Positions 6,463 through 21,465 of a DNA stretch of 21,465 nucleotides are shown here, in pieces. A model generated the notes under the pieces. That model did not search any database. It saw only the letters and a program-made list of their open reading frames with translations, and had not been told where the DNA came from. How positions within the stretch are numbered: the stretch's first letter is position 1; each line of letters starts with the position of its first letter. The stretch is from Vermamoeba vermiformis (Eukaryota), in NCBI GenBank assembly GCA_045837725.1, contig JBEWZL010000208.1, forward strand, positions 186,001-207,465. The letters run 5' to 3'. Made by a program: the position numbers and the translations under genes.

Positions 6463-8543
6463 ATGTTTTGGACTGTTTACGTGGTGCTAGGAATCGGATT
6501 CTTTCTTCTCACGAGAAAACTCCACGAGCAAATCCGTTCTAGGCGCAAATTACCTTTAACTCCTCGTAGTACTATTGCCAAAGCTGGTATTGGTCAAGTT
6601 TTGCCTGCGGTAAGCCTTGATCTGCTAAATAAACGAAAAAATAAAAATAACTCCGATTTGTAGTTAATATTCTATTACGAATTAAATCTAAAATTGCTTC
6701 ATATTTGATATTTTAGTCGGAAAAATAAATTCATTATTTTTTACGATTTTTGGTGAGTTCTGGATGCAGATTAGCTCGCAAATAGTAACACTAGCATTTT
6801 AGGGGATAATTGAGCATATATTAACATATTGTGACCCAACTACAATAGTGGCTAGTACTATGGTCAATAAACACTGGTATTACGGCTCGCAACAAATCCG
6901 CGATCAAGTTTTGTAAGTCCAAAATCCCTACGAGAACAAAATGCAATAGTATTAATTTTATGTTGATAATATAGTCGCGCTTTGATTATGGATATTGACG
7001 ATTTAATCAAAAAAATTCGAGCAACCGCGCCAGAATTCGATCCATCAAAAATTAAATCAATGAACTTGAACGTACGTTATAAACTACTATTAAAACTGTA
7101 TTAAATTTTACTATGATCATATTAGATGTGGAATCAGGAGGAAAGAGTGCGAGACCAGCTGTTTGCTAAGAGCCTTGGCAAAAATTTAATCGTAGCGGAT
7201 CTGCGTAGCGCTCGTGAGCTGAAAAATGCAATGATAAGTTACAATGAGGCACAGAATAGTACCGATAATATAGTTGATGGGTTAGTAGCCTTATAGACAA
7301 TTTAATATTTGAGCTTATGCACGGCCAGCAAAACTATTAATTTTTAAATCAATTTCTTGGCCGAATTATCATTTCCAAATTAGGAAATTTTTCCATTGAG
7401 AGGCGATAGATTATTTTTACGGTAGAAAGTGGCACTAAATCGTTCGTAGATATTTGTTGAAATTTAGTACAAAAATGTACAAACGTTCTGCATCACAATT
7501 TTTCTTCAAAGACGCAGAGGCGGAATTTTGTTGCGTGTTGAAAGATCAGCTGAAATTGTTGCAAAGTATTGTCACGCAGTGGAAGAGTGGCAAAGAATGC
7601 GAGATTATTTGTGAATTGGCGGACATGAATGACGATCATACCATTCATATTGAACATCTTAAACGGATTAGAATCATCGAACAGAAGGCTAAATTTGCAG
7701 GTAACTAATATTTCATTTGCATGTGACCTTCGTTCATGAAACAAGAAATTTCAATTTTTTAAACAGATCCGGTACTTACTTCTAGGCAACCTAATCTAAA
7801 CAAAGTGCCACATATTAATAATTATTCTATTTGATAGATGTGTGTCGAAGGCTCACTAATGTTTTGTTTCCTAATTAGGCTACACGGTGGATGCGAATCT
7901 GTTCAAATCAATATTTTTGCTGGTATTGCCGTGCTTATTATTCGACTATTCAAACAACGTCTCACTGGCCACTAAGATATTCATGGCTAATATATTCAGC
8001 GTGTTGGCTATATTATTCATTGGATTCATGATCGCGTTCACACCAGTCGAAAATTCAAAGCACATCCGCTTCCATCCAAGCGTTCAAAAGTTTCATTATG
8101 TTATCGGTGCTGTACTTGGACTAGCATGGCTACTAATAGCAACATCAATGCGTGATTGGAGCTTTAAATTTGGTCATTATGGATTTTTGCTGGTCATTGG
8201 AAAATTATACACCAGTTTTACTGTCGATTTGCTCCACTGTGGCAAGCGAAAATTGTTTTTGCCTTTTATGGTAATATCAGTTACATTATTAACGGTCATT
8301 CTTGATTGGACTGATATTTTTGGATCTTCGATCCTGAATTTAGCCCAATCATTTTTGAATAATGTCCTATTTCATATGAAATTTGGACTAGGCTTGGTAT
8401 TATTTTTTGCTATGGTCGCTTGTTTTGAAACAAATTCGATCAAATTGGAAAATTTTGTACCGCGAGGAGATCTGGTGATGATCCATCTCATGGACATTAG
8501 CGTGGCGTTGTATATAACCTTGTATAATCCGAACAATGTGTAG
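6463..8543 (+). CDS. Membrane-anchored F-box protein with C-terminal ~7TM domain, paralog B (~474 aa, 6 exons)
   Basis: Exons 6463-6609, 6803-6912, 6975-7071, 7126-7280, 7450-7700, 7879-8543 are in frame (1425 nt). N-terminal TM, then F-box LPA|GIIEHILTYCDPTTIVASTMVNKHW. Shares DQLFAKxLGKxLIxxDL, NSTD, YLLK, LPCxxxDYxN and NxLxHxxFG with paralog A, with the same intron phases. Confidence 0.8.
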
Positions 8544-8761: not shown

Positions 8762-10885
<2,124 letters not shown>

Positions 10886-11320
10886 CACTACAACGCAAAT
10901 ATATTCGTAGTGAGTGGTCTACTACAGCATACTATACGGGCATTAAAAATACGCTTGGCTCCGTTGAATCTCAAAATGGCAAATTTCTCTCGCATTATAA
11001 TGTTAGGAAGAAATAAATTTCGCGCAGTTGATTATCCCGCTACTAGCCGTTATGAAATTATTCAAAACTGACCTACCATGTAGCATAAGAGATATATGAT
11101 TGATAACTATTGAATGCTTTTGTTTATGCCCAACTGATCGGATTTGGTCTTGTTAGTACAAATTGTGGGCGTTAGCTTGCTGGAAGCTGGTTGCTATATG
11201 GTAGCATGAATATCTAGTATACTCCAATACTATCACGTGGCCGAGTCTGTCTTGCCGTTGGTAGCGGCTCTGTCGGATTGGTTGCGCATCTCGAACTAAA
11301 TCTGCCTTCTTCGTTGCAAA

Positions 11321-12998: not shown

Positions 12999-13774
12999 AT
13001 GGGTAATTCGTTGGAGAAGGTATAGAGCTGCGCAAATCAAACGTCACTTAAGAATTTTGATACTTAACCGTTTTAAGGAGGCTGAATTCCATATAACCGT
13101 ATTGGGAGCCAGCAAAGTGGGCAAAACGGCATTAATCTCGCGGTTGGTATCAAATAGTAAGCTAAAAATTGGAATTTAAATTTGAAAAAAATAAATACCA
13201 ATTGGTATTATTAAAATTAATATAGGCGCCACTCGAAATTCGTATGCCGTGTACTTATACAGCGAGAGTAAGATTTTTGACTAATATATGCGATTTTTAT
13301 CGGTTAAATGACAAACTTCTTAGACAAAACTGTACACCTCCGTGTTGACGGCTCAGATAAAGTGATAGAAGTTCACGAATGCGATTTTGAAGCATCAAGT
13401 GATTCGCCCAAAGCCTTACGTAACTATACGGTACACTACCATTGAAGTAATTTTATCAGCACAAAATTCTAACGTAGATCTAGATCGAAAAGCCTGCTGG
13501 ATATTTGCTAGTGTACGATGCAACCAATCCGAAGTCATTCAAAGACGTCCAGCTAATTCGCGTGGAAAATGCCCCAATAGTCCTAGCAGCATTGAAAAGT
13601 GATGCAGAAGATCGAGTAGTGTCCAACGACGAAGGCGAACAGTTCGCCAAAGAGCAAGGGTGGCACTTCTTTGCAGTGTCAGCCAAGGACATTTTGCACG
13701 TGGACGAAGTGTTCCAACAAGTTGCGAGGGAAGTCGTAGCGGGGACTAGTCGCAAAGAGACAAAGTCAAAGTAG
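12999..13774 (+). CDS. Atypical Ras-like small GTPase or pseudo-GTPase
   Basis: Five exons in frame: MGNSLEK|EAEFHITVLGASKVGKTALISR (G1), IEVHECDFE (G3 lost), GYLLVYD, AALKSD (G4 variant), VSAK (G5). Ends KETKSK* with no CAAX. Confidence 0.82.
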
Positions 13775-13975: not shown

Positions 13976-15004
13976 ATGGGGAACTCTACAAATAAGGTAA
14001 AATCATACTGCACTGCGTGGAATTTAGCTAATGACCGCCAAGAGCCTAAGATCTGACACGCTACCGAATAACAATCACAGAATAGTAGTAATTGGTGCTG
14101 CTAAAGTCGGCAAAACATCGTTAATTCTTCGTTTCGTTGTTGATCGTAAGCTAGAAGAAGCATCTAAATATTTATTTAATTTGAAATTAATTTATTGCTC
14201 GACGGTCAGAATTTTTCGAAGATCTCCAGTCACCAGAAGAAGGTAGAATAATGTGGTAATTTTAGAAAGATTATTAGAATTTTTGCCGTATTGCCAAACC
14301 ACATCTGTCATGTCACACTTGTTTGAAATTGGATCTTGAAATGTACGCGTCATACCAGCTTTCTTTTCTGACATAGACTACAAGAAACAAGTAGAAGTTG
14401 ACGCCGAGGAAGCAATGCTCGAAATTCTCGATACAGCAGACAGATCCGACGAAATTGCCGTTGAGGTTCGGGATCACTGCGTATGTTTCCAACATTCCTA
14501 TAACGAATTAATTTTAATTACAATAGTTTGTCGTCATAATGATGAAAAAATTATAGTGGAATGAGACTAATTTCGCTTAATTCTGCAGATCAAACACAGC
14601 CAAGGATTCTTAATCCTTTACGACGTCACTAATACGGAGTCATTTGAAAGATGCCCCAAATTTCATCATACCATATTGAGGTACGTGTCGTACAATAGAC
14701 ATAGCACCGACAAAGCTGTCATGCTTTTAGACGTATGACAATTTGCAATCTTCGCTCTTTTCTGGTTATTAATAACGAAATTTCGATAAGTTTGAAAGAT
14801 ACAGACTGCGTGCCAGTTTTACTTGTGGCAACCAAGTGCGATATTCCGGATCGCGTTGTGTCAACTGCTCAAGGTGCAGAACTCGCAAAACAACACGGCT
14901 GGGCATTTATTGAAACATCAGCGAAAGATAAAATCAATACCAATGAAGTATTTGACGAGATTGTGAGGCAGATCAGAAAACAGAACTGTTCTTCGAAAAA
15001 ATGA
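13976..15004 (+). CDS. Atypical Ras-like small GTPase
   Basis: Six exons in frame: MGNSTNK, IVVIGAAKVGKTSLILRF (G1), EDLQSPEEDYKKQVEVD (no G2 Thr), LEILDTADR (G3 variant), QGFLILYD, VATKCD, ETSAK. Ends QNCSSKK*, which is not a CAAX box. Confidence 0.88.
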
Positions 15005-15158: not shown

Positions 15159-16959
15159 TTATTCAGTGACGACCATAAATCCATTTCTGCCACGCTGGTA
15201 CCTAATTACTGCGTAAATCAAACCACCCACGACAGCCAAACCAACAATGACCAAGAAAACAATCGCCCAAGTAGGCAAATCTGGATTCTCAGCGTTCGGA
15301 GCCGAATGTGGTGTGACGACTGCAGGCGAAGGGCGAGTGGAAGATGAAGGCGATTGTATGGGTGGATTTGATGCTATGGGAGCTGATTGAGGTGCTTTGG
15401 GAGGCGCAGTGCTCAATAAAAACTGCGCAGCAAGGCTGATCTGTTGCGCTGCAATGTTGATCTGGTTTTGAACCTCGTTCCAGTCTTCATCTTCTACTGT
15501 TTGATAAATGCCCGGCAGCACTGTCGAGCCGTAGCCTAATCGCAAACCTGGTGCTTGAAGGACGTGCTTGTACCTTATTGCCATAAAAAGAAATTAGAAT
15601 CCGTTTTGATAAGTTTGTGCACAACAAATTAAGAAAACACAAAGTAATAATTAATATGCAATAACTAAGGAGCTAATAATATTATTGTGCCCAAAGATTC
15701 GAAATTGAAACGGAATCTTAATCGATGTCGGATCCAGTTTTGTTGCTACAACAATGACTTACCAAGGTCGTTTAGGCAGTCCAGGACCGATGAATTGTCG
15801 TTCAGTTGACAACAGCTTCTCATTCAACGCATTGTTACTGGCTTGCTGTTCTCCGTCTTGTTGCATTGATTGGCTGATCTGGACAGATGCCGACATAAAA
15901 CTATCGAGCGCTGCAGTAATGCTCGAATAGTCGTAGCTATTAATTAATTATAGATTAATATATGCTTTTGCAATTCTGAGAAAGAATAAAAGTAATGGAA
16001 TATTTGTTCCGGGCGAGGTGATATCACAAAATTATTTGTCGATCGAGATCTGAGGTCTTAAAGTCCTCTGATATTACGCTATTGCCATATCAATACGATC
16101 TCTTACGTCTTAGAAGCATTAGCACGCTCAATCATTTGCTGCGTCTTCGTCCAATAGTTCATCATATGCACCGCTGAGTTGGTGTAATTCATCGGCACTA
16201 TTTCTTTGTCCGCGTACACAAGACCCAAATACCCGAACAATTTTGACAAAGCCTGGCAAGCCAAGTGCATTAGTATATTATTAAAGGCCGCGCTATGATT
16301 ATACACGTACCAAATGATTGTGGAAGTACGGGTCTCCGAACTGTGTCATCCAGTACAAACTGTCGTACGCGCTGTGATACACGCCGTACGCACCGCGCAA
16401 TTGCAAGTCTATTTAAATAGCGTTAATATCGTTAAGAATATGGTATGAATTATTTAACGGTACCTGCTGAAGCGACACCCAAGTGGTCCAAGAAAGCAGT
16501 GTAATCGGAGCCTGATCCGAGCACGTGACAATCACCGTCCCATGTGTTGTTGCCACCAAAGAACGGCTGAAATACAGTTAGATACTAGTTGCACAATATG
16601 ACTATATAAATATTGTTGATCTTACCGTGCCATCGACGTCGTTGATCTTGGCAGCCGCAGCAATAATTTCTTGTTGCAATGAAGGTGTGGAGCCGCACGA
16701 TAAGGCTATTAATTAATATTACAATCTGTTCCACTTATAACTATTATTGCTTACCTTTACCAGTGACAGCGCTGTCAACCTAATTATAACATGTTAGATG
16801 TAAAGATTCGCATTAAAATATCGATGATCTAGATCTGAGCACACATACATTGAAGTAAGCGACGGCCTTGGCGAGCATATCATTCGAATGACGCTCAACA
16901 AACGCAGTGCTGCCTAAGAGAGCATATTCCTCGCCGTCCCAGCTGCAGAAAATAATGTC
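15159..16959 (-). CDS. Glutamate carboxypeptidase II / transferrin-receptor-like M28 metallopeptidase, 3' part only
   Basis: Motifs IIFCSWDGEEYALLGST, AVAYFN|VDSAV, LGSGSDYTAFLDHLGV, YGVYHSAYD and FGDP; dimerisation-domain segment YKHVLQAPG..GY...LPGI; then a Pro/Ser linker and a C-terminal TM helix. No start codon or 5' exons are present in the window. Confidence 0.92.
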
Positions 16960-17013
16960 CTACAAACACAGATCAGACTCGATCAGTTGCTCGATAATGA
17001 CACGCGCGACACG

Positions 17014-17033
17014 GGACGAAGTTCTACGTGCAG
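17014..17033 (+). repeat. Left terminal inverted repeat GGACGAAGTTCTACGTGCAG
   Basis: The reverse complement of 21446-21465 is GGACGAAGTCGTACGTGCAG (2 mismatches). The true end may include G17013. Confidence 0.9.
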
Positions 17034-17061
17034 CCAAACAACACTGGTAAAAATTTAAAGT

Positions 17062-19705
17062 TCAAACTTTAAACTCTGAGTACAATTTGTTTACAAGTTT
17101 TTTGACATACGTCTTTGAATACGTATTTTCAAACTTGTAATGAACCAAGTAGAATAATAAACTAATTCCAATTCCCTTTTGCTCAGTAAATATTTGTCCA
17201 AGGTATTGCTTGCAAAGTTCCAGATCAGGGTTACGTGGCTCCAACCAACTCATGTGCTTGTATGTAAATTCTCCATCTACTATAATCTGTTCTGCTGTTT
17301 TGAACTTCAATTCAGCAGTGCTAGACAAAATTGGCTTTGGCTCAATATGAATTGTATTGGCAAGTGACATGCTCTTGCCTTGAGATTGCACTCCTTGGTT
17401 AAAGAGGTACTGGAGGTGAGCAATAACCTGATCAGCCAATTCCATTGATATTGAGCCACTGTCCTGAGGAAAATTCTTGTTTAAGTACTTGTGCCAAGTT
17501 TCATTTGCAGAAGTTCCTTGAGAGTATTTGTCTTTTAGCTCAGCAATTGGAATGATGTCATCCACATAGTTTGCAAGTAGGTTCGACATTGCATGAGCCA
17601 CTCTTCCGTCAACAATAGGGGTTGTATGCAATTTGTCAATGTCAGGCAATGCTGGTTTACGTGCTCGCCTGACAGAATCGTTAGTTTAAACTTTAAACTT
17701 TGAAGTTCAATCTCCTTACAATGCACGTGAGTTAGCATAGTGGTCTGCCAATTCCTTTATTAGGTCATCACTTGAGCTTGAATGCACCAATGAATATTTG
17801 TTCAGCCAGTCTTGTAGTGAATGTGCCAAATTGTGGTCTTCCCCATGAATAGTTTTTGCAAAGGTGAGAGAAAGCTCATTCTTAGCCTTGTGATAGTCTG
17901 CTCATTTATTAATAAATCATGTGATAAGATTTAGACTGACCTGCATGCTTGTGATTCATAACTTGGTCCAATCGATGAATTGCATGCCACACATCTTGAC
18001 ATACTTTTGGTTCAGGGAGTGAAGGAAACAGCTTACGCCAACACTCTAACAATGAGTTCTTATCTATAAATGGTGAGTAACAGATGATTTAAGTAATGAA
18101 TTACCTTTATGTGAATTGTCAGTAAAGATATACTTTGTTCGAACCCCCGCTGTCCATAACTTGTGTAATTCTGATTGAATATGAGACCGCTTATCTGACG
18201 GAACAATTTTCGAAACAAGGACACAGCCATCCTCATTCAGTATTGTCAACAATGAAGCTTTCAGTTGGACCTGTAGAAAGTTAGTTACAAGATCTGTAAG
18301 TCTGAGATACCCTTACACGTGATTTGGCATCTTTGGACCATGCCGACAAATTTTTGACAACTTTGTAAGTGTGATCAATCCTTAAAATAATTTTGGTTCG
18401 CTGAATAACAGAGTCCGACATGCTCTTGAGATTATCATTGAATGTCTCAAAGGACAGTGAGTAAATGCCTTCAATAAACTTAGGTGTAGTTCGAATGATG
18501 TCATTTATCTGCAACTTTATCTTTTGCAGTTCATCTGGCTTGTTTTGCAAGCATTGGTACGCCTAATAACATTATTTTTATGGTGAAAACACATAGAGCT
18601 ACATACCACTTGGATACGGGACTCAAAGTGAGCCAGCCACAGTTGTTGAACTGTTTGTAAAATCTTATTGAAATTGAAATAGTGAGCAGGAGCAACATTG
18701 AAAATAAACTGAGCAAATCGCTTTGTAATAACTGTTTTCGGCAAAACAATTATGGAAGGTTCGGAATACGTTTTGTTATCCACAACAGACAAGGCAGTAA
18801 AATGAGCGTCATGGATTCGACAATAATATTGCGGCACTCGCAGTACAAAAGGCGCATCTACATCGAAGCATCGCTTCCTCTCCAAAAAGCCTTTCTTTGT
18901 CACATGACATTTCTGCGACACAGGTCAATTAAGTTTAAACTTTAAACTTTGAACTTACTCCTTTAATCTTGTTGGGGCAGTGTTCGGGAATGAAGTTCAG
19001 GGATGGTTTTTGATTTAGAGTTGAAGACAGCTGCAATTCAACAGTTTGGATAACCTCAGCAAAGTTATCTGCAAGCTTCATTATACAAGGAGTTCACTAT
19101 GCAACAACACTTACCAGCACTGGAGTTGAAAGAAAGAGAGGCCAGTTGCTCTATTAACGCTTCATGTTCAGCACAAGTTTCATCTTCAAAGTTCAAACTT
19201 TGATGTTTGAGTTCATTTTTTTGTGTTCGTTGCTCAACACTGGATGTCTCTTCTTTTATGCCCAAATCAGGTGCAAGACAAGGCTCATGCTGCAGTGCCT
19301 CCACTACTTTAGCAATATGCATAATTAGACCAATCTAGTGTACACCAAATGATGGGTAGAACTTGCCTTTTTTGGGTTTTGACCTCGAATGAGATTGTTT
19401 TTCGGAAAACCGCTCAAAATTGTCTTGTAGAGTTCGTTTTTTTCCTTCATTCGCATCTGTTCAAATGGTTAACTTCAAACTTTAATATATAAATTTTATT
19501 TGGTACCTTTATGCATTCGTTTATGGTGCCTTTTTAAATCTGCGGCTAGATTTGAATTGTACGAGCAGTTATCTTCGCGACACACCAGCGATTGCTTCGG
19601 CGCTCCTTTGGCTCCAACCTTTCGTAGCAAAAAGCATCTATAAATTGATGTGCTCTTTGCCAAGCACAGCGTTATGTCTAACTCGTCGTTCTCTTGTGTG
19701 GTCAT
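17062..19705 (-). CDS. DDE transposase, ~738 aa, 10 exons, with N-terminal C2H2 finger and a Cys-rich (DUF6729-like) domain
   Basis: Exons 19705-19507, 19456-19367, 19306-19115, 19068-18959, 18912-18607, 18562-18317, 18270-18105, 18063-17941, 17897-17720, 17668-17062 total 2217 nt in frame. Motifs: CREDNC...LKRHHKRMH; CP..C...RCFDVD...YYCRIH; LRIDHTYKVVK (D1); FTDN (D2); QDVWHAIHR; GTSANETWHKYLN (E). Confidence 0.88.
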
Positions 19706-19768
19706 TGACCGTAAAAAAATATTATTAGTGTGCTAATTTTGTGATTCGCGTTACCACTCGTCATTGCA
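19706..19768. promoter_or_regulatory. Putative minimal bidirectional promoter of the transposon
   Basis: 63 bp lie between the divergent predicted ATGs at 19705 (-) and 19769 (+). Inferred from position only. Confidence 0.5.
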
Positions 19769-21390
19769 ATGGCAGAGAAGAGCTCTGCAAAGCGTGCCCG
19801 TAGTCAGGAGGAAGGTGAAGAGTCAGGTAAGCATTTCAAAGTAATAATTCGGCAACGGGAGTATTGAATCTAATTTTTCAGATAAAGACCAACAAAAACG
19901 CCGAAAGGTTAACAATGACGATTCAAGTAAGCATAATAAATCTGCTGGGTGCAATGTATTATTTGTTGAAAATATTTGCACGAGCACAACTAATACAAAC
20001 GTGGTTAGGTTCTGGGTCGGATGAGGAAAACGATGAGGCCAACGACTGTAAGTACCAAAACATTACTATATATATTTAATTATGGCCACATTATATTCGA
20101 ACAATTATTATTATCAGCGCCATGCTATATTAAAAATTAGGCTGTTTGTTTTCATAACGGTAAAATTAATTAATAGTACCTGTTCTCGAATTAAATATTT
20201 ACGCTAAGTTTAAACTTCAAACTTTTAACTTCAAATTTAGTGAAAGTGGGCACGTTTGTTGCAGTAAATTTACCGAATGGGTTCCGATTTGCCAAAATTA
20301 AGAAAGCCAATCGCGTCACGCCTATCGTTAAACTGCTGAAGGTAGCGTAATTTTAAATAATGTTAATGGTTAAGTTTTAATTGCAAATGAAAACAGTTCA
20401 CCTCCGAGATCTTCAATAAAGGGAGCTACTATTCTCTTCAAAAAACAGATAAGAAAATTGCTCGTGCTGACGTGATTAAAGAAATTGAAGTTTCGTTTGA
20501 TGAGCACGAATCAAAATTTTTTGTCGCGAACGAAGTTATTACTGAGATCAGCAGGCGTAAGTAAACAGTATTAATTGTCACAACGGCTAATTATCGTTCT
20601 GCAGTTACGAATCCGACACAGACACCAGGGCCTCTGCAAAATCTTGATGTGGCAGAAGACAACAAGCAATCAACTGATTTCGATCTGGATTTTTCGCGCC
20701 CAAAACAAAAAAAGAAGGCGTCTTTATTACCAGAAGGATGTAAGTGGGCTCATATTATATAGTTAAATATTTATTTAACAATAATTCAGTCTCTGTGAAA
20801 ACTTCCGATCAGATCGGACTCGCGCACCAAGATGTTTGGAAAGGAGCGAATAGTAAGTAGTTTAAAGTTTGAACTTTAAACTTTACAATTAATTGTTTGA
20901 CACGGTTTAGATTCGGAGCGACTCGGCTATCTCCTACGCTGGTTAAATTACAACAAATATTTCACTAGCTCTGCAGCAAATTCTGCCATATCAAAGCAAG
21001 GCAAAACTCCGACGCCTAGTTATTTGTATTTTAAGCTCCGTAAGTATTCCCAACAACAGATACGATTTTTTGCCTAACGATCCGATAACAGTTTATTACG
21101 TAATTCCACAAGACGAGACAAAGGACGAACAAATCGAAGGGGCTGTAAAAACATCAATTGTCACTGCGTTCAACGGGGAGGCAAATCCAGACAAATACAA
21201 GATCTACGGGAAAAAATACTTTTTGACGTCATTAATCCAGGATTATTTAGAAATGTCAGAGAACACATGGACGACTGCTGTGTGCCAGCTGATTAACAAA
21301 GGAGCAGTTTGGTTAAAAGAAACTGTACGCACTGACGATAATTTTATGTATGTAATTATTCCGCCGCTCGTGCCTAATAATAAAAAGTGA
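19769..21390 (+). CDS. Transposon accessory protein of unknown function, ~342 aa, 9 exons
   Basis: Exons 19769-19826, 19882-19926, 20009-20047, 20241-20341, 20397-20556, 20605-20739, 20790-20852, 20911-21039, 21092-21390 total 1029 nt in frame, mostly with GTAAG donors. NLS-like KRAR/KRRK, an acidic patch, and a beta-barrel-like segment LKVGTFVAVNLPNGFRFAKIKK. Confidence 0.8.
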
Positions 21391-21445
21391 GAAAAAACCT
21401 AAAAGTTCAAAGTTTAAACTTTAATTTATTATCTGATATTTTTTA

Positions 21446-21465
21446 CTGCACGTACGACTTCGTCC
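21446..21465 (-). repeat. Right terminal inverted repeat, abutting the window end
   Basis: CTGCACGTACGACTTCGTCC matches the left TIR at 18/20 positions. Confidence 0.9.

Follow-up and report, generated by a model that had tools for sequence, protein, structure and literature searches.

A recently mobile two-gene DNA transposon of Vermamoeba vermiformis with a probable Dada-type transposase and a possible array-binding helper protein

What kind of DNA transposon pairs an intron-rich transposase gene with a second gene placed head-to-head to it, and what might that second gene do? The question is raised by a 21,465-nucleotide stretch of the Vermamoeba vermiformis genome (GenBank assembly GCA_045837725.1, contig JBEWZL010000208.1, positions 186,001 to 207,465; hereafter the window), in which positions 17013-21465 hold an element with inverted ends, a 10-exon gene for a transposase of 738 amino acids (aa) and, head-to-head with it, a 9-exon gene for a 342-aa protein (gene 2). 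That this is a real two-gene transposon we regard as nearly certain. The explanation that we favor overall, at a probability of about 0.55, is an autonomous, recently mobile cut-and-paste element of Dada type that bears terminal inverted repeats (TIRs) and encodes a helper protein binding to arrays of short motifs within the element. Its parts, and the host gene that it interrupts, are as follows.

15159-17012, minus strand: 3' part of the interrupted host gene (M28 peptidase with a TFR dimerisation domain, glutamate-carboxypeptidase-II-like); the 5' part is on contig C93
17005-17012, plus strand: left copy of the inferred 8-bp target duplication (CGCGACAC), within a host intron; contig C93 begins with its last 5 bases, and relatives duplicate 8 bp
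17013-17080, plus strand: left TIR; 21-bp core starting GGG, imperfect repeat to about 68 bp, containing a motif cluster
17062-19705, minus strand: probable Dada-type DDE transposase, 738 aa, 10 exons, from a spliced model and relatives
19705-19507, 19456-19367, 19306-19115, 19068-18959, 18912-18607, minus strand: transposase exons 1-5
18562-18317, 18270-18105, 18063-17941, 17897-17720, 17668-17062, minus strand: transposase exons 6-10
19706-19768, no strand: gap between the two start codons, bordering the CpG-rich half of the element; presumed shared promoter; 43-106 bp in four relatives
19769-21390, plus strand: accessory gene (gene 2), 342 aa, 9 exons
19769-19826, 19882-19926, 20009-20047, 20241-20341, 20397-20556, plus strand: accessory exons 1-5
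20605-20739, 20790-20852, 20911-21039, 21092-21390, plus strand: accessory exons 6-9
21399-21465, minus strand: right TIR; the contig stops 1 base before the expected end (record 8 of the source sample begins at its base 2)

An initial annotation, made from the letters of the window, had described 20-bp TIRs, a second 9-exon gene across 63 bp, stop codons some 30-55 bp from the inner TIR edges and no TTAA at the left flank, and each of these points holds. The TIR cores (17014-17033 and 21446-21465) share 18 of their 20 bases and form part of an imperfect 67-bp inverted repeat that is 76% complementary; the two start codons are 63 bp apart, ATG to ATG; the stop codons lie 28 and 55 bp from the 20-bp cores; and the left flank has no TTAA. 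The true left end lies 1 base outside the annotated one, at 17013 (GGG), as relatives show, together with a source-sample contig whose first base is there. At the other side, the window's right edge, 21465, is the end of contig C208, and the expected right end is 1 base beyond. To this picture we add an 8-bp duplication, a location within a host intron and a repeated word of the AAGTTTAAACTT type.

Is the element one of a kind? Searching the genome with transposase exon 10 yielded seven other, diverged transposase loci, six of which have both TIRs, 4.4-6.5 kb apart and all starting GG (GG..CC ends); the seventh, L037, has one end only. An exact 8-bp target duplication is seen in four of the five relatives with both flanks, the fifth matching at 7 of 8 bases, and the insertion sites of the copies have no obvious common motif. 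Two relatives, L035 and L036, are 99.15% identical and occupy different sites. Spliced transposase models are open in five of the six full-length relatives (608-724 aa) and in L035 (724 aa), and are 30-34% identical to the window protein. Gene 2 lies head-to-head with the transposase gene in all six, with start-codon gaps of 43, 46, 75 and 106 bp in the four of them other than L033 and L035; none of the six lacks gene 2, in agreement with the earlier proposal that the accessory gene is proper to the element. A search of the genome by TIR pattern gave three matches, all accounted for, and no miniature inverted-repeat elements. Seven more loci were found in metagenomes: the sister family L043 and L044 shares the TIR start and the motif, L045 is a member of subfamily B, and L046/L047 and L048/L049 are two distant types. 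No tRNA or Rfam match was found at the scanned host-genome loci, the only such matches being in the distant metagenomic L046/L047. Scans of viral contigs and prokaryote genomes, which detect close relatives only, returned no relative.

The element sits a few bases inside the host intron, because the first 5 bases of contig C93 are the last 5 of the left flank, and after them come a splice donor and then the rest of the host gene. The right copy of the window's 8-bp duplication is not present in full in the assembly. Run X1 is possibly the source sample itself and hence not independent; its contigs break at 17013, and their loose ends lead to the host continuation (an empty allele), to a second flank and possibly to a third, which a search of the assembly did not locate. 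The second flank corresponds to the C260 locus; there the assembly has 215 noisy bases of the element's left end: the flank ends in AGAAATGA, and the identical 8 bases follow the garbled insert, which makes an 8-bp duplication at the second copy. Because the source-sample contigs show both an empty allele and a second insertion, the element moved recently. The three element contigs listed have zero differing letters and depths of 620-795, versus 304-383 for the listed contigs of host-gene alleles; this fits about two near-identical heterozygous copies, although depth cannot be read as copy number. Pieces of the element, several without differences, also occur in an independent water metagenome, X3. 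(In one low-depth X3 contig, compare window 17684-18351, 40 other letters stand between 17706 and 18351; it probably derives from a related element.) The initial annotation's "young, possibly active" stands as regards youth, given the empty allele, the second insertion and the intact genes; current activity we infer from the insertion polymorphism only.

To which superfamily does the transposase belong? As annotated, its reading frame is uninterrupted across ten exons and has a full D-D-E triad with DVWH: there is no internal stop, DHTYK is at residue 362, TDN at 431, DVWH at 460 and GTSANE at 588, and D362, D432, D460 and H463 are invariant in the 10 models that cover them, as is E593 in 11 of 11. 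Its introns (8 GT-AG and 1 GC-AG, 41-60 nt) are predicted by splicing models whose positions are supported by relatives; those after residues 381, 437 and 478 have the same phase in 7 of 10 modelled related loci, all but L046, L049 and the partial L037. Compared by eye, the motifs ILRIDHTYKV, LNEDGCVL or LNEHGQVL, IFTDNS, QDVWHA and QGTSANETWH follow ILCIDGTKKV, GNEHGQVL, LYVDRD, LDIWHF and RGSTSLESFH of fish Dada, as hand-translated from part of the supplement of PMC8869645; L034, L036 and L044 have exactly the NEHGQVL of fish Dada. The catalytic spacing is D-70-D-161-E here and D-68-D-176-E in Dada-U6_DR (passages of PMC3706591). Both enzymes come from intron-rich genes and have a DxxH in the DDE core. 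A zinc-finger-like cluster is possibly shared as well: C191/C199/C228/H231 here starts 171 aa before D362, the last three ligands being invariant, the first variable and the fourth a histidine, whereas the N-terminal finger of Dada, in the descriptions consulted, is CCCC and about 178 aa before the first D. With four catalytic motifs and their spacing resembling Dada by eye (PMC3706591, in part), the lineage no longer answers to "poorly described", the term of the initial annotation. In addition, the N-terminal half of L038 falls among DUF6729 clusters of the ESM Atlas (0.96); DUF6729 would be a mark of Dada. The transposase is very probably of Dada type.

The element is nonetheless a Dada-type variant and not a canonical Dada member, because it has TIRs, an 8-bp target duplication, no RNA-gene target and no C-terminal CCHC finger. 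In the passages available of Kojima and Jurka 2013 (PMC3706591) and Kojima 2022 (PMC8869645), Dada elements have no TIRs, duplicate 6-7 bp, sit in U1, U6, tRNA or 5S genes, are 4.7-11 kb long, end their protein in a CCHC finger and are described with no second gene. The element and its relatives differ on each count: TIRs with GG..CC ends, 8-bp duplications, no RNA gene at the host-genome flanks scanned, a length of 4.4-6.5 kb, a constant second gene, and a 738-aa enzyme whose last 145 residues have one cysteine and no CCHC finger. By title and the start of the abstract, no two-gene or TIR-bearing Dada was found in the literature, that on Novosib included, and no paper on DUF6729 was found; Repbase may hold such families. 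None is mentioned in the relevant passages of PMC10045372, PMC6446971, PMC5751038, PMC12477816, PMC9587614, PMC12973397, PMC13565253 or PMC4455052. What is undescribed in the literature searched is this combination on a Dada-type enzyme: TIRs, a target duplication of 8 bp, insertion away from RNA genes, a second gene and motif arrays.

An unusual member of some other C/DxxH superfamily with 8-bp duplications (MuDR/Mutator, hAT, P or Novosib), unrelated to Dada, would be the obvious competitor, and we consider it improbable. Maize MuDR (mudrA/mudrB) and yeast Mutyl likewise have a C/DxxH transposase and a second gene on the opposite strand. The MuDR genes are convergent. Here, on the other hand, the genes are head-to-head and 43-106 bp apart, the TIRs are short and no MULE (Mutator-like element) domain is matched. 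MULEs do have 8-11-bp duplications, a range that takes in the 8 bp seen here, and some have a second open reading frame (ORF), according to passages of PMC6446971; moreover, a scored link to Dada was not obtained. Yet no MULE, hAT or P model of Pfam matches, in exon-sized pieces (split exons reduce sensitivity) or in the 258-aa single-exon core of a relative; solved transposase structures do not match the core profile; and the four ordered motifs follow Dada. For Novosib, the part of PMC5751038 consulted reports an RNase H fold as not confirmed. Kolobok Kol0 with its KolX (PMC9587614, in part) is similar in having a C/DxxH transposase, a second protein and RR..YY termini, but it duplicates TTAA and KolX has a 7-Cys zinc fold, whereas here the duplication is a variable 8 bp and the gene-2 protein has a single Cys. 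We rejected Kolobok on the variable 8-bp duplications and MuDR on the missing MULE match and the Dada-like order of motifs, as the initial annotation had anticipated for both. The Pfam profile search that it advised was carried out, and neither element protein was named above cut-off by Pfam or NCBIfam; placement came from the motif resemblance to Dada. Nine HMMER matches to exon 10 (eight fragments, short and either unnamed or hypothetical, plus a repetitive Hydra protein that showed no matched stretch) were discarded as spurious.

What, then, might gene 2 encode? Its models have a charged N-terminus, a barrel-like segment and a C-terminal domain that ends in a hydrophobic strand and PP. Profiles of gene 2 connect subfamily B to the window (22.1 bits, C-terminal domain; above all of 300 shuffles) and B to C (20.7 and 12.0 bits, barrel; each above all of 300). 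Gene 2 diverges faster than the transposase, at about 21% versus 32-34% identity between the window and subfamily B. The model of the window's last exon is strand-helix-helix-strand-strand, with a pLDDT (predicted local distance difference test score) of 49; Foldseek with this C-terminal model gave no match at an E value of 0.001 or better. Most of its top non-significant rows (MarR, SarX, BlaI, DsrD, FoxO1) are what we take to be winged-helix proteins, and so, presumably, are the two best weak sequence matches. The barrel-like segment is possibly SH3-like, with weak SH3 matches (E 0.18-1.6) and unnamed clusters only in the ESM Atlas (0.86). Gene 2 also contains tandem exon-plus-intron units in L036 (4648-5930; 154 bp, 8.3 copies) and L033 (4633-5968; 142 bp).

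Another feature of the element is a 7-bp unit, AAAGTTY (the AAGTTTAAACTT-type word), repeated in short, partly palindromic arrays at a density of 6.3 per kb, versus 0.09 in host DNA, 0.29 in AT-rich host tiles and 0-0.15 in the other five families. Seven of the ten clusters in the window are non-coding, a class that makes up 27% of the element. L034/L036 and L033 have related words of their own, with coding clusters numbering 0 of 6 in L033, 0 of 10 in L034 and 0 of 9 in L036 (modelled parts); enrichment of family-specific motifs in non-coding parts is thus seen in the window, L033, L034 and L036, and each of the six families examined has clusters at both subtermini. In the window, the arrays are placed as follows.

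17054-17075: motif cluster (AAAGTTY units), left subterminal
17682-17707: motif cluster, transposase intron 9
18929-18956: motif cluster, transposase intron 4
19185-19202: motif cluster, coding, transposase exon 3
19469-19486: motif copy, transposase intron 1
20204-20231: motif cluster, accessory-gene intron 3
20859-20884: motif cluster, accessory-gene intron 7
21402-21424: motif cluster, right subterminal

Methylases are encoded by the host: among four methylase loci are a DNMT1-like (E 3e-72) and a DNMT3-like gene (E 4e-18). (By eye, L052, on G000:C11, is a second locus with DNMT1-like motifs besides L050, and L053 is DNMT2-like.) In the window transposase, 10 CpG dinucleotides span codon boundaries (C3-G1) versus 32.5 expected, and 0 of 1000 shuffles were as low; in host ORFs the figures are 72 versus 69.8. 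The four array-bearing families have transposases whose ratio of observed to expected codon-boundary CpG is 0.26-0.31, as against 0.75-0.77 for those of L038/L039 and about 1 for host ORFs. CpG is retained near the central promoter in L033, L034 and L036 and across gene 2 of the window. In another protist with DNMT1 and DNMT3, methylation marks young transposable elements (PMC12344493, in part). The CpG pattern marks a history of methylation, not a role of gene 2.

Bearing in mind these observations, we hypothesize that the transposase pairs the two TIRs and excises the element, as DDE chemistry suggests, and that insertion follows with an 8-bp stagger at sites without an obvious common sequence that are not RNA genes; the case for cut-and-paste with an 8-bp stagger is made by the anatomy of the element. 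Less firmly, both genes may share one short central promoter. The gene-2 protein would be a sequence-specific DNA-binding helper, probably a winged helix, that binds the intronic and subterminal arrays and, once bound, would keep the element expressed or mobile in the face of host CpG methylation, much as VANC and TnpA do in plants. We put the chance that the gene-2 protein is what binds the arrays at about even; an anti-silencing role specifically is a tentative proposal. The VANC-like reading is suggested by four things together: a fast-evolving, probably DNA-binding protein, family-specific non-coding arrays, tandem exon-intron repeats and a methylating host. The motifs bound by VANC lie in introns and in intergenic and terminal regions, and the genes for VANC have tandem exon-intron repeats (PMC5735166, in part). 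VANDAL21 of Arabidopsis with VANC21 (same source) and Spm with TnpA (passages of 10.64898/2026.08.24.746577) share with our element a fast-evolving accessory gene, a short family-specific motif clustered in introns and termini and a host with CpG methylases; the tandem exon-intron repeats of VANC genes have their parallel in L033 and L036. The plant elements differ in transposase group and host, and the likeness is one of layout; no sequence link was seen, no search aimed at one having been made.

Several results weigh against this interpretation. No scored alignment to any Dada protein was obtained in word-based protein searches, and the Pfam DUF6729 model does not match these elements (run across the element's own genome, it gave one weak, unrelated match, E 0.21). 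The direct gene-2 link between the window and subfamily C is not significant; the barrel profile fails to detect the window protein, in which the barrel was assigned by eye; and the C-terminal winged helix is a lead, drawn from the model of pLDDT 49 and from non-significant matches. Three of the ten window clusters are coding, and p-values for motif enrichment are optimistic because the motifs were picked from the sequences on which they were tested. Gene 2 is not always accompanied by internal arrays, because L038 and L039 carry it with subterminal motifs only. Any protection must be incomplete, because the CpG loss shows that array-bearing families were methylated; gene 2 of the window itself has no CpG loss. 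As to expression, RNA runs X17 and X19 provided 18 and 53 reads, every one of which fell on the host gene and none on the element; they are silent on the matter because these reads, 90-95% alike, come from another strain, and no RNA sample is listed with the element.

The main rival is a reading that we think unlikely but serious: the arrays would be binding sites of the transposase itself, for end recognition and self-regulation, with the gene-2 product acting structurally in excision or integration, as MURB or the Harbinger partner does, and playing no part in silencing. It stays alive because subfamily C has gene 2 without internal arrays, and it sits well with the clusters at both subtermini in all six families, including L038 and L039, and with the C2H2-like finger near the N-terminus of the transposase (E 3e-4, below cut-off). 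A Mutator transposase has been reported to activate its own copies (preprint 10.64898/2026.08.24.746577, in part), and MURA binds MURB (passage of PMC12973397). End recognition, however, does not need internal intronic arrays, and the faster divergence of gene 2 (about 21% versus 32-34%), together with its winged-helix-like end, fits a protein that tracks a changing DNA word. We find it improbable that gene 2 is instead a targeting or chromatin-reading factor, whose SH3- or Tudor-like barrel would steer insertion to permissive chromatin after the loss of RNA-gene targeting, the arrays being neutral products of slippage. A barrel-like segment common to subfamilies B and C, with its weak SH3 matches, would suit such a factor, as would insertion sites without an obvious motif and a window copy that lies in an intron; but the identity of the barrel is unproven, its ESM Atlas clusters being unnamed, and local slippage alone would hardly produce family-specific words at many separate non-coding places and in both orientations.

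Some distant or partial relatives merit description in their own right. L046 (5328-8708; also L047) has 27% core identity, a locus of 61% GC and no second gene seen. L046/L047 are bounded by perfect 291-bp inverted repeats, each of which opens with a complete tRNA-Gly(TCC) gene and reaches into the transposase start; there is no 8-bp duplication, and the interior is flipped between the two contigs. This arrangement is possibly a bridge to tRNA-targeting Dada, or else an assembly effect. In L049 (1-6562), an ORF on the opposite strand weakly matches a MYND finger (E 0.055), and this relative has a near-palindrome of its own, repeated where the contig starts and again upstream of the transposase. 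The last exon of gene 2 in L036 has five matches in the genome, namely four full elements and one one-ended copy; L061 (1697-4330, G000:C43) is a one-ended copy of the L036 family in which gene 2 survives in its 3' part; unrelated sequence interrupts the copy at a TA-rich site, and the next 15 kb did not yield the remainder. L040 (C266, 5800-7651) is the sole other match to the last exon of the window's gene 2 (E 8e-6), a short C-terminal one beside a repeat array at the contig end; the 7.6 kb examined contain no transposase or TIR, and 31 bp are in common with a flank of the one-ended L037 (1440-1470).

Elsewhere in the window are two adjacent Ras-family GTPase genes (13484-13774 and 14705-15004), a minus-strand gene at 8762-10918 whose exons resemble an AGC-type protein kinase with an acidic extension (the one exon tested has no Pfam match), and two intron-free hydrophobic ORFs of about 225 aa (1375-2070 and 7875-8543), probable membrane proteins with no Pfam match.

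Dada is known as a site-specific group of DNA transposons without TIRs, so that a TIR-bearing, non-targeted, two-gene branch offers a natural contrast for the basis of site specificity in Dada enzymes. In its fullest and rather speculative form, our proposal is that in a free-living protist a Dada-type branch gave up RNA-gene targeting in favor of TIRs and free insertion, and independently evolved a VANC-like anti-silencing system in which a winged-helix protein co-evolves with intronic arrays and opposes CpG methylation by DNMT1/DNMT3. The element is small, intact and recently mobile, and is directly testable. If gene 2 does bind the arrays and counter methylation, transposon-encoded anti-silencing would not be a plant speciality, and the families in this one genome, with three related but distinct motifs, would be matched protein-motif pairs for specificity swaps.

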